64,000 nt of DNA, from the NCBI GenBank assembly GCA_041489155.1, contig JBGPQP010000003.1, positions 32,001 through 96,000 on the forward strand, in the 5' to 3' direction. The notes under the pieces were generated by a model, which was given only the letters and a program-made list of their open reading frames with translations, searched no databases and had not been told where the DNA came from. Below are positions 23,414 through 31,069 of this stretch, piece after piece; within the stretch, counting starts at the first letter, position 1; each line of letters starts with the position of its first letter. The translations under genes and the position numbers were made by a program. Source of the DNA: Candidatus Aenigmatarchaeota archaeon (lineage in GTDB: Archaea > Aenigmatarchaeota > Aenigmatarchaeia > QMZP01 > QMZT01).

Positions 23414-23983
23414 ATGGTCGAGTTTCACATAAAGGTCGAAAATGTAGTCGCCTTTGCTGTTTTAGGCAAGAGAATCGTGCTCAACAAGCTCGTTGAAAAA
23501 ATGGGCAACACCGAATACGAGCCCGAACAGTTCCCGGGCCTCGTCTACAGGATAAAGGACCCGAGGGCGGCTGCGCTTATTTTCTCGTCAGGCAAGATAG
23601 TCTGCACCGGAGCGAAGAGCATAGCTATGGCAAAGGAAGCCATGAGGAAAATCGTGCAGGACATAAAGAAGACAGGCACCGCCATGCCGACGAAGTTCAA
23701 CATAAACATAGAGAACATAGTCGCGTCGACTAAAATCGACGTCAAGCCAAGGCTCATGCTCGAGGAAATCGCCATGTCGCTCGAGGAAGTGGAATACGAG
23801 CCCGAACAGTTCCCCGGCCTTGTTTACAGGATGAAGAGCCCGCGAACCGCTTTCCTGCTTTTCGGCTCGGGCAAGATAATCTGCACGGGCGGCCGCAGCC
23901 TGGAGGACATAAACACTGCACTGAACAACTTCAAGAAGCGGCTGGAAGGGATAGGCCTGAAAATCAAGCCGGCGAAAGACTGA
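23414..23983 (+). CDS. tbp: TATA-box binding protein
   Basis: Two repeats of YEPEQFPGLVYR and F.SGKI.CTG. Confidence 0.98.
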   Translation: MVEFHIKVENVVAFAVLGKRIVLNKLVEKMGNTEYEPEQFPGLVYRIKDPRAAALIFSSGKIVCTGAKSIAMAKEAMRKIVQDIKKTGTAMPTKFNINIENIVASTKIDVKPRLMLEEIAMSLEEVEYEPEQFPGLVYRMKSPRTAFLLFGSGKIICTGGRSLEDINTALNNFKKRLEGIGLKIKPAKD

Positions 23984-25048: not shown

Positions 25049-25843
25049 ATGCCTGAGGTTTTTCAATACGGTTCTAATCTGAGCAAGGATCGCTTTACTA
25101 GTAGGATGTTGCAGGGTGAATATAGGCCCGTGAGTGATCTTGGCAGATATGATTTAAATGGGTGCGAAGTCGTATTTGATGTTCCCAGTCAAACCGTACG
25201 CGTAGCTGCTGACATGATACCTTCTCAGCCTTCTTCACGTGCTGTCGGAAGAGTTTGGGGCATAACAAAAAAACAATTTGAAACTCTCAAAGGATTCGAG
25301 GGTCCTCGTTATAGAGAGGAAAGAATACAGATACCCGGAGTTGGCAATGCAATAACGTTTGTTGGCACGGATGATGCCAGAAGAATTTTCAGAGCACAAC
25401 ATTCTGGCGAGTTGCCTACAGGAGAGTATCTTCATCACATCATAACCGGACTTAATGATCCTAACGTAAGAGCAGAAATAGAATATATAAGTCAAATTAT
25501 AGGAAAAGGAAGACCAAATCTCTCTGGAAGTAGAAGAGATGTCAGGCAAACCTTTGACAACCCTAGAGAATTTATGACATCTTCAATCGGAATCGACAGA
25601 AATTTAAGAGACGATTTGGGAGTAGGAGTAGGAGATTTTGTTCGGGTACATTATGATAGAAATTGGCTTAATCTTCAGGTAAGAAAGGCCCCAATAGAAT
25701 TAGTCGATTCTACTCTGTCACCCGTAACTCTTTCAAGAAAAGCTAGAGAATTTCTTGGCATGCGACCCGTTTCGCAAAGGGACGCGGAAAGCTTCAGAAC
25801 AATATATCCTGGATTATCCATCACCAGATTAGAAAATTTATAG
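25049..25843 (+). CDS. Gamma-glutamylcyclotransferase (GGCT/AIG2-like) fused to a putative double-psi-barrel C-terminal domain
   Basis: FQYGSNL, VGRVW, LKGFEG..Y and EYLHHI motifs; AT-rich. Confidence 0.7.
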   Translation: MPEVFQYGSNLSKDRFTSRMLQGEYRPVSDLGRYDLNGCEVVFDVPSQTVRVAADMIPSQPSSRAVGRVWGITKKQFETLKGFEGPRYREERIQIPGVGNAITFVGTDDARRIFRAQHSGELPTGEYLHHIITGLNDPNVRAEIEYISQIIGKGRPNLSGSRRDVRQTFDNPREFMTSSIGIDRNLRDDLGVGVGDFVRVHYDRNWLNLQVRKAPIELVDSTLSPVTLSRKAREFLGMRPVSQRDAESFRTIYPGLSITRLENL

Positions 25844-25892: not shown

Positions 25893-27467
25893 ATGAGCTT
25901 CGTGAGCCATCCGATGATCAGGCCGAATGCGATAGAGTCGAGACTCTACCAGGAAGCGATAGTCGGCAGGGCGGCAGCGAACGACCTGCTCTGTGTGTTG
26001 CCAACGGGATTGGGCAAGACTCCTATAGCCATCGTTTTAGCCGTTCACCGCCTTGAGAAATTCCCGGGCTCTAAGGTACTGGTCATGGCGCCGACCAAGC
26101 CGCTGACCGAGCAACATCTGCATTCTTTCATGCGGGCGATAAATCTGCCGGATGAGGAGTTCGTCCTGGTCACAGGAAAGACAAAGCCTGGCAGCAGGCA
26201 GGAGCTTTACAGGAACGCCAGAATAATTTTTGCCACGCCGCAGACCATCGAGAACGATCTGGAAGGGGGAAGGATAAACCTGGAGGACTTCTCCCTCCTG
26301 GTCTTCGACGAGGCGCACCATTCGATAGGAGATTACGCTTACCCTTACATAGCTAAGGCGTATGCCGGGCAGGCGAAGAACCGCAGGATCCTCGGCCTGA
26401 CAGCATCCCCGGGCGGGACGAAGGCTAAGATAAAGGAGATCATGGACAACCTCGGCATCCGCGAGGTCGAGATACGGACGGAGAAAGATTTCGATGTGGA
26501 GCCGTGGGTGCAGGAGAAGCATGTGGAATGGGTCTACGTCAGGCTGCCGGACGCCTTCGTTGAACTGGGCAAAACGCTCAGAAAAGCCTATATGGACAGG
26601 CTGGAGAAGCTCAGGAAAATAGGCTTCAACAAGCCCGTCGGCATCATAAGCAAGCGTGACCTTCTGGCGCTGCAACAGAAGCTCATGGCCAGCCCCTCGC
26701 GCGACTACACCAAGTTCTGGGGCGTTTCGCTGGTCTCGCAGGCGATAAAGCTCGAGCACGCGCTCGGCCTGCTTGAGACGCAGGGCATAACATCGCTCTG
26801 GAACTACTTCAGGAAGCTGTCTTCAAGCAAGGCAAAATCGTCACGGAGCGTGCTGAAGGACAAGAACGTGATAAAGGCGATGAAGCTATCCGAAGCGCTG
26901 GAGGCCGAAGGCCGCAAGCATCCGAAGATGGCGAAGCTCAGCGAGCTCGTTAGCTTCCAGCTGCGCGAAAAACCCGCCTCGAAAATCATCCTGTTCGCGA
27001 ATTACAGGGAGATGGTCAGGGAGCTAGTCAAGACGCTGTCCAATGTTGAAGGCGCGAGGCCTGGCGAATTCATGGGACAGAAGGAAGGGATGACGCAGAA
27101 CGAACAGAAGCAGCGCATACAGGAGTTCAAGGACGGCATCTATAACATACTGGTAACCACATCAATCGGCGAGGAAGGAATTGACATACCGGAGATGGAG
27201 CTCGCGATTTTCTACGAGCCCGTCCCTAGCGAAATTCGTTCGATTCAGCGGCGCGGACGAGTGGGGCGAACGAAAGTCGGCAGGATAATCATACTCATGG
27301 CCAAGGGCACGAGGGACGAAGCGTATTACTGGACCGCGCAGAGAAAGGAAAGCATCATGAGGAAAACGCTGTACGAGATGAAGGAGGAATCACGATTCCC
27401 GGAGGTGCCGACGCGTCAAAGAAGAAAGATTGCCAAGAGAAATCAGAGTAGTTTATCGGATTTCTGA
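25893..27467 (+). CDS. hef: Hef/FANCM-type SF2 helicase, without ERCC4 nuclease domain
   Basis: RLYQ, LPTGLGKT, PTKPL, DEAHH, LTASPG, HPK, SIGEEGIDIP and IQRRGRVGR motifs. Confidence 0.9.
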   Translation: MSFVSHPMIRPNAIESRLYQEAIVGRAAANDLLCVLPTGLGKTPIAIVLAVHRLEKFPGSKVLVMAPTKPLTEQHLHSFMRAINLPDEEFVLVTGKTKPGSRQELYRNARIIFATPQTIENDLEGGRINLEDFSLLVFDEAHHSIGDYAYPYIAKAYAGQAKNRRILGLTASPGGTKAKIKEIMDNLGIREVEIRTEKDFDVEPWVQEKHVEWVYVRLPDAFVELGKTLRKAYMDRLEKLRKIGFNKPVGIISKRDLLALQQKLMASPSRDYTKFWGVSLVSQAIKLEHALGLLETQGITSLWNYFRKLSSSKAKSSRSVLKDKNVIKAMKLSEALEAEGRKHPKMAKLSELVSFQLREKPASKIILFANYREMVRELVKTLSNVEGARPGEFMGQKEGMTQNEQKQRIQEFKDGIYNILVTTSIGEEGIDIPEMELAIFYEPVPSEIRSIQRRGRVGRTKVGRIIILMAKGTRDEAYYWTAQRKESIMRKTLYEMKEESRFPEVPTRQRRKIAKRNQSSLSDF

Positions 27468-27479
27468 TCAGGTTAAATG

Positions 27480-28436
27480 TTATATTCGAATGTGGCGTAA
27501 TTCACCTCTCGTGTATAGTGTTCTCCGTAAACGAAACAAAGCCCTTTGCCTAAGCTGACTAATTCGTACAGGTGTGACATCATATTTCCAAGCAAGTTGT
27601 CTAGTTTTCCCTAAATCAATGTTATCAGTAAACTTGAAACTCACAACATCGCCATGTTTTCTGCCTTTTTCTACTGTTTTTATTATTCCAAATGATTCTA
27701 ATAGATGTTCTGGAACATCTGAAAGAGGACCATATTTAGATTCAACGTATTTTAAAATTTCAGACCTATCCACGGGTTCAGTAGTTAAATTGTTTCTATT
27801 AAAATCATAATATTTTTCAATTATTGAAAATTCTCTCTCGGGAAGTGAGGATAGAGCTGAGTTCAAAGCCATGCACAACCTTTCTTCAAAATCAATCTCA
27901 GATGATGTTTTTTTAGATAAAATTAAGTCTTTATACCACCACTGATCTTCTTCTGTGGGTACTGGCCATTTGTCCACCAAGTTTAAAATAATACCAGCCA
28001 GACATTTTCTCATATACAGATCGTAATTCTTATCTTTGCCCGATGTGTGTTTTCTCTGGTTACCTAAAAATTGTATAAACGCTTCCTGAATAATATCTTC
28101 CCTGTCCTCTTCTGTCGTATCCGACCTTTTTTTGTATTCCACACAATTGTCGAATATTCTCTTCATTATTTCCAAAACCTTACCGGTTTCCATGTTTTTT
28201 TCCAACTTTCCAATTCCATTAGTGTATCCTAAAATTTTCATTTCCTCTCTCGTGGTCAAACCAAGTTCTTTCCTAACATGGGAAGGATTGCTATCGAAAA
28301 AATGTTTATAAACATCACTATGTCCTGCATCGCTTATTTCATAGATATTAGGATTCCTTCGGTTTTTTGTACAAAATCCTAAGTAAAACTCTAAAAATTC
28401 ATCCCTCTTTCCCAAACATATTTCTGTATTTGCCAT
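27480..28436 (-). CDS. Sigma70-like protein (regions 2 and 4) with possible N-terminal homing-endonuclease-associated repeat
   Basis: EDIIQEAFIQFL...YMRKCL (region 2); ALSSLPEREFSIIEKYY...QLAWKYDVTPVRISQLRQRALFRLR (region 4 HTH); AT-rich. Confidence 0.7.
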   Translation of the reverse strand: MANTEICLGKRDEFLEFYLGFCTKNRRNPNIYEISDAGHSDVYKHFFDSNPSHVRKELGLTTREEMKILGYTNGIGKLEKNMETGKVLEIMKRIFDNCVEYKKRSDTTEEDREDIIQEAFIQFLGNQRKHTSGKDKNYDLYMRKCLAGIILNLVDKWPVPTEEDQWWYKDLILSKKTSSEIDFEERLCMALNSALSSLPEREFSIIEKYYDFNRNNLTTEPVDRSEILKYVESKYGPLSDVPEHLLESFGIIKTVEKGRKHGDVVSFKFTDNIDLGKTRQLAWKYDVTPVRISQLRQRALFRLRRTLYTRGELRHIRI

Positions 28437-28548
28437 ATTTCCAATTCAAATTAAATTCTAAGATTTAAATAAGCTACTATCTTATAGTAGTTAATAATTA
28501 AAACACCACAAAAAGTTATTTTAAATCATGTAGCATAATAGTCTAATT

Positions 28549-29925
28549 ATGTATTCTCACGAAATACAGCGGCTTCTCGGGCACAAGAACATCGCCATTG
28601 GCGACAGGGTCCTCGTCCAGAAGGACGGCAAAAAGCACGAGGGCCTGCTCATGCCAAAGCCTTCCCACGGCGACGAGAGAACGGTTCTCATAAAGCTTGA
28701 CAGCGGCTACAACGTCGGCTTCGATATAACCGGCCTCGTGATTTCGAAGGCGCATTCGAAAGAGCCGAAAGACGTGAAAGAAGAGGCGAAATACGAATTC
28801 GGCAGGACGAACAAAGAGCTGCTTGAACTGAAGTTCGATGCGAACAAGCCTAAGGTCGCGCTAATCTCGACCGGCGGCACCATTGCTTCGCGGGTTGATT
28901 ACAGGACAGGAGGCGTCTACGCTGTCGAGAATCCCAAGGAGCTCCTGCACAACATACCCGAGCTTTCTCACATAGTTAATCTCGAGATGTTCAGCCCGAT
29001 TAAGAAGATGAGCGAGGATCTCGACCCTGAGGACTGGCAGCACATCGCCAGGGAGGTCGCTAAAGAGTTGAACGCCGGAAAAAAGGGTGTGATTGTAACG
29101 CACGGCACGGACACGCTGCATTACACTTCCGCTGCGTTATCATTTTTCCTTCAGAATCTCGGCAAACCCGTCGTCCTTGTAGGCGCGCAGAGGTCGAGCG
29201 ACCGGGGCTCGAGCGACGCCGGCCTGAACATCATCTGCGCGGCGCACGTCGCCGTGTCTGACATCGCCGAGGTCGGGACGTGCATGCACGGCAGCACGAA
29301 TGACGCATACTGCCATTTCATCCGCGGGACGAAGGTGCGCAAGATGCACACGACCAGGCGCGACGCCTTCCAGCCGATAAACGAGCCCGCGCTGGCGAGG
29401 GTCTTCGCTGATGGCAGGATCGATATAATCAACAAGAACTTCAGGAAAAGAGATGACAAGAAGAAGGTGGAGGTCGACGCAAAAATCGACCCGAACGTCG
29501 CGATACTCAAGGTCTATCCCGGCTCGCACTCGAATGTGATCGATTATCACATCAGGAACGGGTGTAAAGGCTTCGTCATCGAGGGGACCGGCATGGGCCA
29601 CGTGCCTACTGAAGTCTCGAAAAAGCCTTGGACCCTTGCGATAAAGAAGCACTCGGAAACCATCCCGTTTGTCATAACCTCCCAGACAATTTACGGCAGG
29701 GTAAACCCATACGTCTACACGAACCTGCGCAAGCTGTTCATCGATTCCGGAGCGATTCCTGGCGAGGACATGACCAGCGAAACTGCGTATGTCAAGCTCA
29801 TGTGGGTGCTCGGCAAGACAAAGAGTATGGAGAAGATACGCGAGATGATGCTTACGAACTACGTCGGTGAAATCACCAGCCGCACGGAAACCGACGCCTT
29901 TTCTGCAGAGGGATTGAATGAGTGA
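28549..29925 (+). CDS. gatD: Glu-tRNA(Gln) amidotransferase subunit D
   Basis: KLDSGYNVG, STGGTIASRVDYRTG, HGTDT, GAQRSSDR and ETAYVKLMW motifs. Confidence 0.97.
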   Translation: MYSHEIQRLLGHKNIAIGDRVLVQKDGKKHEGLLMPKPSHGDERTVLIKLDSGYNVGFDITGLVISKAHSKEPKDVKEEAKYEFGRTNKELLELKFDANKPKVALISTGGTIASRVDYRTGGVYAVENPKELLHNIPELSHIVNLEMFSPIKKMSEDLDPEDWQHIAREVAKELNAGKKGVIVTHGTDTLHYTSAALSFFLQNLGKPVVLVGAQRSSDRGSSDAGLNIICAAHVAVSDIAEVGTCMHGSTNDAYCHFIRGTKVRKMHTTRRDAFQPINEPALARVFADGRIDIINKNFRKRDDKKKVEVDAKIDPNVAILKVYPGSHSNVIDYHIRNGCKGFVIEGTGMGHVPTEVSKKPWTLAIKKHSETIPFVITSQTIYGRVNPYVYTNLRKLFIDSGAIPGEDMTSETAYVKLMWVLGKTKSMEKIREMMLTNYVGEITSRTETDAFSAEGLNE

Positions 29926-31069
29926 GATTTTAACTAAAAAGTTGCACAAAAATTCAGATAGAAAATTTTCGCTTATTTTAGCTAAACCCAAAAATAAGGC
30001 AGACGTTCCTAAAAATTTGTGGGAAAAATCAAAAAGGATAGTGGTTAATCGATTTCGTGAAGAATATGTACCTCTTTATCTCTTAAATTCATATAAGATT
30101 AAGATAGATAAGTTGGTTGTGAACAACACATACGGAAGGCCTATTAAATTTGTTACGGAATTAACAGAGGATTTCGCAAAAATAATAGGTGCTATTTGTT
30201 CGGATGGCCATATAACAACTAAATCAAAAGCTGATTATATCATACAGTTGGTCGATTCCGACAAAACAGCAGTCATAGCTTTTCAGAAATGGATTGAAAA
30301 TATATTTGGTAGAAAGTATACTGTCAATAAGGACTATACATCGAACTCGTGGAGAATAGATATAAACAACAAGATCATAGGCCGTTACTTGGTTGATGTT
30401 ATAGGGCTCCCTACCAATAAAAAATCTGATACTGTAAGATCACCAAAAGTTATAATGAGAAGTACTTCAGATATTCAAAAGGCATTTTGCGTTGGAGCTT
30501 TAACTTTCGATGGAGGAATAGACATAAGCGGTAATATAGAATTTTTAACACGTAGCAAACAATTCTATTTGGATATTGTTAGAATCCTGAAAAGATTGAA
30601 TATCGATGCGTACTACAAAAAAACAAGCGATAAAAACGGATTTTGGAGGTTCCATTTGTGCAGATCATCCCCAGAATATAAAAAATGGTTGCAACTTTTT
30701 GAAAAGGGAACAGAGAAATGGGAAAAAATAAAAGAAAACGTAAATGGTTTCAAAAAGATACCAACTTCGGAGAACGAAGTTCTTGAAACATTCAGCAGAG
30801 TATTCCCCTCTAAAAACAGAAGCTTTGTAAACATCTCTGATTTTTTTAATTGCCTAAAGAAAGCTGGAAATTGTAATATAGAGGAACTAACGAAGAAATT
30901 AAATATAGATAAAACCACAACAAATAAATATAGAAAAGTTCTGAAAGATTGCAATATAATACGCGAAGAACACATTGAGGGCAAGAAATATAAAATAGAG
31001 ATATGCTTCAATAAAAATATACACGAATGGAGAATACCAAAAAGGTCTTATAATGGAATTGGATTATAA
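29918..31069 (+). mobile_element. Free-standing double-motif LAGLIDADG endonuclease gene with C-terminal winged HTH
   Basis: FAKIIGAICSDGHI and FCVGALTFDGGI motifs; C-terminal IEELTKKLNIDKTTTNKYRKVL HTH; sharply AT-rich; overlaps both gatD and gatE. Confidence 0.8.

Follow-up and report, generated by a model that had tools for sequence, protein, structure and literature searches.

Transcription initiation in Archaea uses TBP, TFB and TFE, and a gene resembling those of the bacterial sigma-70 family in an archaeal chromosome raises the question of whether its product belongs to that family, how the gene was acquired and what its function might be. Such a gene was analyzed in a stretch of 64,000 nucleotides (hereafter the window) from contig JBGPQP010000003.1 of the Candidatus Aenigmatarchaeota archaeon assembly GCA_041489155.1. 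It lies on the minus strand at window positions 27480..28436 and encodes 318 amino acids (aa) followed by a stop codon, as given in the list of open reading frames (ORFs). The start codon is the first ATG, only 3 more in-frame codons lying upstream (open frame of 321 aa). The position and length are those given in a preliminary description of the locus, which had taken the gene for a sigma-70-like one. Of seven features in that description six were borne out, the exception being a resemblance proposed for the N-terminus. On balance, the evidence presented here favors an intact gene that was acquired horizontally and encodes a highly divergent sigma-70-family protein, which would most likely act as a transcription regulator rather than as a classical sigma factor.

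The protein was recognized by the NCBIfam model TIGR02937 of the sigma70-ECF (extracytoplasmic function) superfamily, with residues 103-306 aligned to positions 23-164 of the 165-position profile (E 1.7e-9). All ten NCBIfam families listed for the protein are sigma-factor models. FliA-type models matched the two halves of region 4 separately, at residues 183-213 and 286-307 with ∼25 bits each. Likewise, ten of ten matches in a sequence search of the PDB were sigma factors, albeit weak (E 0.07-0.8), with FliA chains on top. Two PHROG sigma families matched with E values of 7e-5 and 4e-4, both generic, and the look-alikes in a protein atlas were sigma clusters at 0.93. Region 2 was tested alone by aligning 15 sigma domains from the same archaeal order and comparing them by hhalign with the two-member family described below. 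Regions 2.1 to 2.4 were recovered at residues 107-153 with a probability of 95% and an E value of 3.8e-8, consistent with the TIGR02937 match that begins at profile position 23. The region-2-like segment of the preliminary description is therefore real. Since hhalign finds region 2 at this probability, the outcome in which profile searches return only a generic helix-turn-helix (HTH) and no region 2 does not apply. The region-4-like segment is likewise present, with Sigma70_r4, the FliA-type models, phrog_351 and the sigma4 superpositions in agreement. Taken together, the sequence comparisons support a sigma-70-family homolog with regions 2 and 4, the match being well beyond chance. Seven other TIGR02937 matches in the same genome were all HTH-only and reached at most 18.4 bits. 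Regulators of archaea that contain only a sigma4-type HTH, of the Tfx, LuxR and HTH_10 types, form the family background in the portion of PMC5413776 available to us. Assignment of the protein to this group was considered and rejected on account of the supported sigma2 domain.

A single relative was found at E≤0.001 by HMMER among 1.84 billion representatives. This protein, P0002, is 314 aa long, encoded on a 177.5-kb contig and 34% identical (E 1e-43). Word-index searches of 5.8 billion sequences, with the single protein and then with the alignment of the two proteins (A1), retrieved only the sigma-like protein and P0002. The relative is colinear over residues 13-304 (298 aa), retaining both an N-terminal domain and an insert that are described below, and it matches TIGR02937 independently (E 1.1e-7, 31.6 bits). 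This full-length, colinear homolog shows the gene to be genuine and constrained. The identity is unevenly distributed, with 46% in the N-terminal domain, 42% in sigma2, 21% in the linker, 22% in region 4.1, 29% in the insert and 24% in region 4.2. Since the N-terminal domain and sigma2 are 46% and 42% identical versus 24% for the HTH, the presumed protein-contact part appears better kept than the DNA-reading part, a pattern that points to a retained protein-protein interface and not only a recycled HTH. Elsewhere the protein is extremely rare. The gene was absent from 60 of 60 relatives searched, including 4 of 4 congeners, and from all of the 370 further genomes of the phylum that were searched (present in 1 of 371 with the host). 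Scans of metagenome contigs yielded no relatives of the protein, and a scan of a genome collection yielded as its single match a bacterial (Actinomycetota) sigma factor, 26% identical over residues 52-154. No relatives were detected in IMG/VR viral contigs, nor by tblastn in 50,697 phage records or 72,556 plasmids.

The predicted layout is ECF-like, comprised of sigma2, a short linker and sigma4, to which are added an N-terminal domain of 83 aa and an insert of 62 aa inside sigma4. All segments are on the minus strand. The N-terminal domain (residues 1-83; 28188..28436), the segment with the highest identity to P0002, belongs to no known family and is modeled with a predicted local distance difference test (pLDDT) score of 39-70. 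Residues 1-86 matched nothing in Pfam at E≤10, and the protein-atlas search gave no usable match. The preliminary description had likened this N-terminus to homing-endonuclease-associated repeats, a resemblance that did not hold, with HNH_repeat (PF18780) unmatched genome-wide at E≤10. The sigma2-like domain (residues 84-156; 27969..28187) contains a 'DREDIIQE' motif in region 2.1/2.2 and the aromatic residues Y138 and Y141 in region 2.3/2.4. It is followed by a linker of ∼21 aa (residues 157-177; 27906..27968) without region 3, as seen in a 24-row alignment and in the low pLDDT at residues 158-172. The region 4.1 helices (residues 178-213, 'LSSLPEREFSIIEKYY'; 27798..27905) are placed by the FliA model NF005413, in which residues 183-213 align with profile positions 174-204, by Sigma70_r4 at residues 194-214 and by VIA superpositions of sigma4. 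The region 4.2 HTH (residues 276-309, 'TRQLAWKYDVTPVRISQLRQRALFRLR'; 27510..27611) has an isoelectric point of 11.9 and is placed by TIGR02479 (residues 286-307 versus profile positions 202-223), by the sigma factor family phrog_351 (residues 277-314) and by sequence matches to RpoD region 4 in the PDB. The two parts of region 4 are separated by the insert (residues 214-275; 27612..27797), which is present in both family members, adds ∼63 alignment columns relative to ordinary ECF-like sigma factors in the 24-row alignment, and belongs to no known family, a Pfam match to YcgL (E 0.24) being noise and the protein atlas giving none. An insertion of roughly 60 aa splitting region 4 had been noticed previously, in close accord with the 62 aa measured here between region 4.1 and the HTH. 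Neither the N-terminal domain nor the insert has a paralog in the genome.

A first AlphaFold2 (AF2) model, built on the two-sequence alignment, reached a pLDDT of 52 and was set aside for fold searches. The second model, built on the 24-row alignment of the sigma-like protein, P0002 and ECF-like sigma factors of the order, reached a mean pLDDT of 75.8, with ∼80-92 in sigma2, 86-96 in sigma4 plus the insert and low values in the first 80 residues. The insert was predicted to be ordered (pLDDT 86-94), consisting of two helices (residues 224-235 and 243-247) and a beta-hairpin (strands 251-256 and 264-269). A structure search other than Foldseek, against 48,161 chains, returned sigma-factor entries in rows 1-20, and the ECF factor SigL superposed on model residues 73-314. 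Of the 49 Foldseek rows from the PDB, all with E>0.001, 48 were titled sigma or sigma holoenzyme and the other was 8ik3_C.

The upstream region was inspected for signals of archaeal expression. A TATA-like box, TTTAAAT, was read from the sequence on the minus strand at 28463-28469, its center 30 nt upstream of the ATG, as the preliminary description had indicated in attributing a box of its own to the gene. On the opposite strand the divergent gatD gene has ATTTTAAAT at 28518-28526, ∼27 nt before its ATG and therefore in a comparable placement. Judged by the usual spacing of archaeal promoters, the distance fits a predicted leaderless or near-leaderless transcript. Located 4 nt upstream of the TATA box, at 28474-28490 and without strand, is the perfect palindrome CTACTAT-CTT-ATAGTAG (7-3-7). 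The pattern CTACTAT-N3-ATAGTAG occurs once in the window versus 0.01 expected and has no other perfect copy in the genome, and because of this uniqueness the palindrome is considered a candidate operator. A single copy with 1 mismatch, on contig C4, was dismissed as it lies inside a coding sequence.

The chromosome around the gene is archaeal, as had been assumed. The flanking genes are archaeal housekeeping genes encoding aIF-2B, a Hef-type helicase, GatD and GatE, and the sigma-like gene is a single-gene insertion between hef and gatD. The genome encodes archaeal Rpo1 above the model cutoff, and the model for bacterial beta' only cross-matches the same locus. The TBP gene is at window positions ∼23429-23947, 3.5 kb from the sigma-like gene, where about 4 kb had been estimated. 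Over the whole host genome (G000), full two-repeat TBP genes were found on contigs C3 (the one in the window) and C20, a single-repeat frame of 106 aa on C16 and a partial copy with an internal TAA on C14. The sigma-like gene has a GC content of 34.4%, and 29.5% at third codon positions (GC3), versus means of 49.9±5.1% and 61.9±11.1% for the 932 ORFs of at least 120 aa in the 1.13-Mb genome. Equally low GC occurs in only 12 of the 932, which bears out the AT-richness remarked on in the preliminary description. The position between hef and gatD is variable in the congeners, being occupied in G002, G003 and G004 by another gene, whose product of ∼300 aa has a signal-like N-terminus, and by a 365-bp gap in G001. 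Since the gene is an outlier in GC and is missing from the four congeners and the 370 other genomes of the phylum, it looks horizontally acquired, in agreement with the origin proposed previously. The acquisition looks fairly recent and confined to one lineage of a small-genome archaeon. The latter is probably of DPANN type, judging by genomes of 0.5-1.9 Mb across the order and by a sigma-70 frequency that agrees with the published one.

The integrity of the assembly was examined with contigs of three runs (X1, X2 and X3) representing three studies, of which those of X2 and X3 are distinct from the study that may be the source. The contigs bridge the hef/sigma and sigma/gatD junctions with 0-1 mismatches. 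Contigs of X1 cover 26900-28322 and 28333-29100, those of X2 cover 26900-27675 and 27895-29100, and those of X3 cover 27354-27663 and 28378-28643.

From these results a path can be proposed for an intact, divergent and horizontally acquired regulator. A bacterial-type sigma gene would have been transferred into one archaeal lineage, landing in the variable slot between hef and gatD, where a TATA promoter of archaeal type would drive its transcription. The very basic HTH of region 4.2 would bind DNA, and the better-conserved module, made up of N-terminal domain and sigma2, would engage another protein, perhaps the clamp of RNA polymerase (RNAP). The candidate operator is situated in the gene's own promoter. 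Since the genome has only an archaeal RNAP, together with TBP, the protein is most likely no classical sigma factor, its probable role being sequence-specific regulation of transcription.

Several observations weigh against this reading. The TIGR02937 score of 37.5 bits is below the curated cutoff of 42.9, Pfam Sigma70_r4 reached 19.1 bits (E 9e-4, residues 194-214) and not its cutoff of 24.1, and Sigma70_r2 was not among the Pfam matches at E≤1. Because the TIGR02937 and Sigma70_r4 scores are under the cutoffs, the protein is regarded as a homolog at the level of the superfamily and not as a member of a curated model. Foldseek searches with the AF2 model gave no match at E≤0.001 in the PDB or among the viral folds of BFVD, the latter no better than the former. 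In the 24-row alignment, both family members have G where ECF factors have the conserved N of region 2.4, and the insert may disturb the function of sigma4. Finally, a family of two members is too small for an estimate of constraint from the ratio of nonsynonymous to synonymous substitutions (dN/dS).

The rival that survives best agrees with the favored reading on the identity of the protein and differs on its origin and beneficiary. The gene could be carried as cargo by an archaeal virus, a prophage remnant or another mobile element that has escaped recognition. Its product would then serve the element and not the cell, for instance through redirection or modulation of host transcription. The strong AT-richness, the strain-specific occurrence and the variable slot are compatible with such cargo, as are a second AT-rich selfish gene, encoding a LAGLIDADG endonuclease, at a distance of 1.5 kb and the phage-borne nature of several look-alike clusters in the protein atlas. 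In addition, the available portion of a 2025 paper (PMC12647753) describes divergent rpoS-like genes on viruses of DPANN archaea, one of them on a prophage. However, the locus is a single gene between housekeeping genes, with no integrase or tRNA target that would mark a mobile element and with flanking direct or inverted repeats limited to short, low-identity pairs at chance level. The viral, phage and plasmid collections named above hold no relative, the BFVD folds matched no better than those of the PDB, the PADLOC defence models matched neither the sigma-like protein (P0001) nor P0002 at E≤0.1, and the PHROGs matches were to generic sigma families. This rival is judged plausible but unlikely. 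The more specific proposal of a virus or mobile-element relic, which the preliminary description had offered beside a repurposed regulator, gains little support from an ORF that is intact and colinear with P0002 and lacks viral neighbours.

In a bolder reading of the function, the module formed by the N-terminal domain and sigma2 would dock on the archaeal RNAP at its clamp coiled-coil, to which TFE and Spt5 also bind, while the sigma4 HTH would read a DNA element. The protein would then be a true sigma-like factor for the archaeal polymerase, directing it to promoters or modulating initiation, with the insert and the N-terminal domain as enabling adaptations. We consider this rather improbable. 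Still less probable is a protein tied to a bacterial RNAP, whether a recent and non-functional bacterial or phage sigma factor or one that acts on a bacterial partner. The core-binding-type 'D-I-I-Q-E' motif and a region 4.2 helix like that of groups 1-3 are kept, and the sole match in the genome collection is the Actinomycetota sigma factor. On the other side, no close bacterial relative exists among the representatives searched, where P0002 alone passed the threshold, the TATA box is archaeal in style and at the right spacing, and the genome lacks bacterial beta'. The non-sigma additions kept by P0002 further argue for a settled, distinct family.

A decaying, non-functional remnant, its frame open by chance after the transfer, might explain the scores under the family cutoffs, the interrupted region 4 and the extremely sparse distribution. 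It is considered very improbable given an open frame of 318 aa from the first ATG, an insert that is predicted to be ordered and a sequence that the contigs of three studies reproduce identically (0-1 mismatches). Moreover, P0002 is colinear over its whole length and shares both the insert and the N-terminal domain, a state that random decay would not have preserved. A chimera of assembly or binning, in which a bacterial or phage fragment was joined to archaeal DNA, would account for the sharp drop in GC at the gene and is refuted, as far as contigs can tell, by those from three studies that span both junctions, two of the three being outside the possible source study, which answers the concern over a chimeric contig raised in the preliminary description. 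The rivals to the regulator thus rank by weight as mobile cargo, then a sigma factor for bacterial polymerase, then a dead remnant.

Among the closest known systems are the ECF group 4 sigma factors, represented by SigL and SigH of M. tuberculosis (PDB 6dv9_F, 3hug_A and 6jcx_F). The linker is short and region 3 is lacking, yet the protein scores under the family cutoff, carries the extra N-terminal domain and the insert, and has a 4.2 helix that matches models of the Sigma70_r4 and FliA type and not r4_2. Its host is without a bacterial RNAP, and no neighbouring gene for an anti-sigma factor, typical but not universal in ECF systems, was seen, the flanks being hef and gatD. The protein resembles FliA/WhiG (sigma-28) in that FliA models match region 4 in its two halves and FliA chains top the PDB sequence matches. 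It differs in the absence of region 3, in scoring 25 bits versus cutoffs of 190-201 and in having no flagellar context.

Sigma factors in related archaea are known. The available portions of PMC8204110 report sigma-70 genes in DPANN archaea, describe anti-sigma factors as absent and call the mechanism unclear, and Table S3 gives the frequency of the family fam00359 as 39% in Woesearchaeota, 38% in Pacearchaeota and 38% in Aenigmarchaeota. A search of the literature found no functional study of such archaeal sigma proteins and no description of the present variant. Among 91 genomes of the order, 35 had a TIGR02937 match over the cutoff, close to the 38-39% given for Woesearchaeota and Pacearchaeota in that part of Table S3. 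The cutoff was passed in only 10 of 14 control genomes, counted over a mixed set of 10 bacterial and 4 archaeal ones. Where the preliminary description had implied that a sigma gene in an archaeon is a surprise, the gene itself stands and the surprise is overstated, given the 35 genomes of the order and the DPANN sigma-70 genes reported in the same portions of PMC8204110. Sigma-70 genes in DPANN archaea being already known, the new part is this rare and divergent variant. Like the fam00359 homologs, as far as the available text of PMC8204110 describes them, it is a sigma-70 gene in a small archaeal genome with TBP and TFB. Unlike most of those, which are canonical, it is a far outlier with one relative, and none of 16 sigma proteins of the order scored above 14 bits with its profile (A1).

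The sigma-like proteins L021 (G018) and L024 (G009), of the same archaeal family, include the best of the 16, namely L024. Both contain a short insert between regions 4.1 and 4.2 with a 'YGP' motif, and L024 also shares a 'YM.KC' motif in region 2.4. Their insert is ∼20 aa versus 62, a region-3-like segment is present and the N-terminal domain is lacking. The 14 bits and the short motifs hint at a specific link of the sigma-like protein to L024 and L021. The rpoS-like genes of DPANN viruses are, by their description in the available portion of PMC12647753, similarly divergent homologs, unlike which the present locus is without viral neighbours and found no counterpart in searches of the viral collections.

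Other sigma genes of the order were observed in the course of the comparison. On the 600-kb contig C1 of G024 (L052, 5446-7950), a protein of 835 aa matches Sigma70_r2, r3 and r4, all above the Pfam cutoffs, and has a long C-terminal extension. Its gene follows an archaeal L14/L24P/S4e/L5/S8 operon and a KH-domain gene and precedes archease. Two ECF-like sigma genes of G085 adjoin aEF-1alpha. In G036 (contig C74, L051, 100500-112500) an ECF-like sigma gene lies by genes for a bacterial-type DNA polymerase III alpha (in two pieces), SSB and a PD-(D/E)XK nuclease, a region that may represent an island of bacterial origin, an element or an error of binning. The proteins of L003 (G029, contig C20; 761 aa) and L004 (G050, contig C52; 691 aa) have an RpoD-type core that is followed, close to the C-terminus, by another region-4-like segment, and contig C20 of G029 contains three sigma-family matches within ∼7 kb.

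Additional features were noted near the gene and in the corresponding positions of the congeners. Upstream of gatD, three congeners (L016, 565-1467; L014, 2921-3976; L018, 209-1102) encode a protein of ∼300-350 aa that is not in the slot of the host. It has a twin-arginine-like signal ('RRNFIG...') at the N-terminus and a TPR-like C-terminus. The LAGLIDADG homing-endonuclease-like gene (window 29918-31069, plus strand; 383 aa, 31.7% GC) is free-standing, encodes a C-terminal winged-helix domain and lies exactly between gatD and gatE, overlapping both, ∼1.5 kb from the sigma-like gene. In G001, G002 and G003 gatD abuts gatE, and in G004 two other genes are found at this spot. A 264-aa ORF at 25049-25843 (plus strand), in a kilobase of lower GC (∼42%), weakly resembles GGACT at its N-terminus and CDC48_N in another segment, with no PHROG or PADLOC match. 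In the genome as a whole, GC is ≤40% in 45 ORFs of at least 120 aa, eight of which cluster on contig C1 at ∼65.5-74.3 kb. Because of these 45 ORFs, including the cluster on C1, AT-rich accessory DNA is considered to be scattered through the genome.

The canonical sigma genes of sister genomes, such as that for the 835-aa protein of G024, offer cleaner and more convenient test cases for the function of sigma factors in Archaea. The protein described here represents a distinct, rare variant in which the conserved parts are sigma2 and a new N-terminal domain and in which sigma4 carries an ordered insert. If the protein contacts the archaeal RNAP, it would constitute reuse of an initiation factor across domains of life. 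If it only binds DNA, it would be one more regulator module of Bacteria recruited by Archaea.

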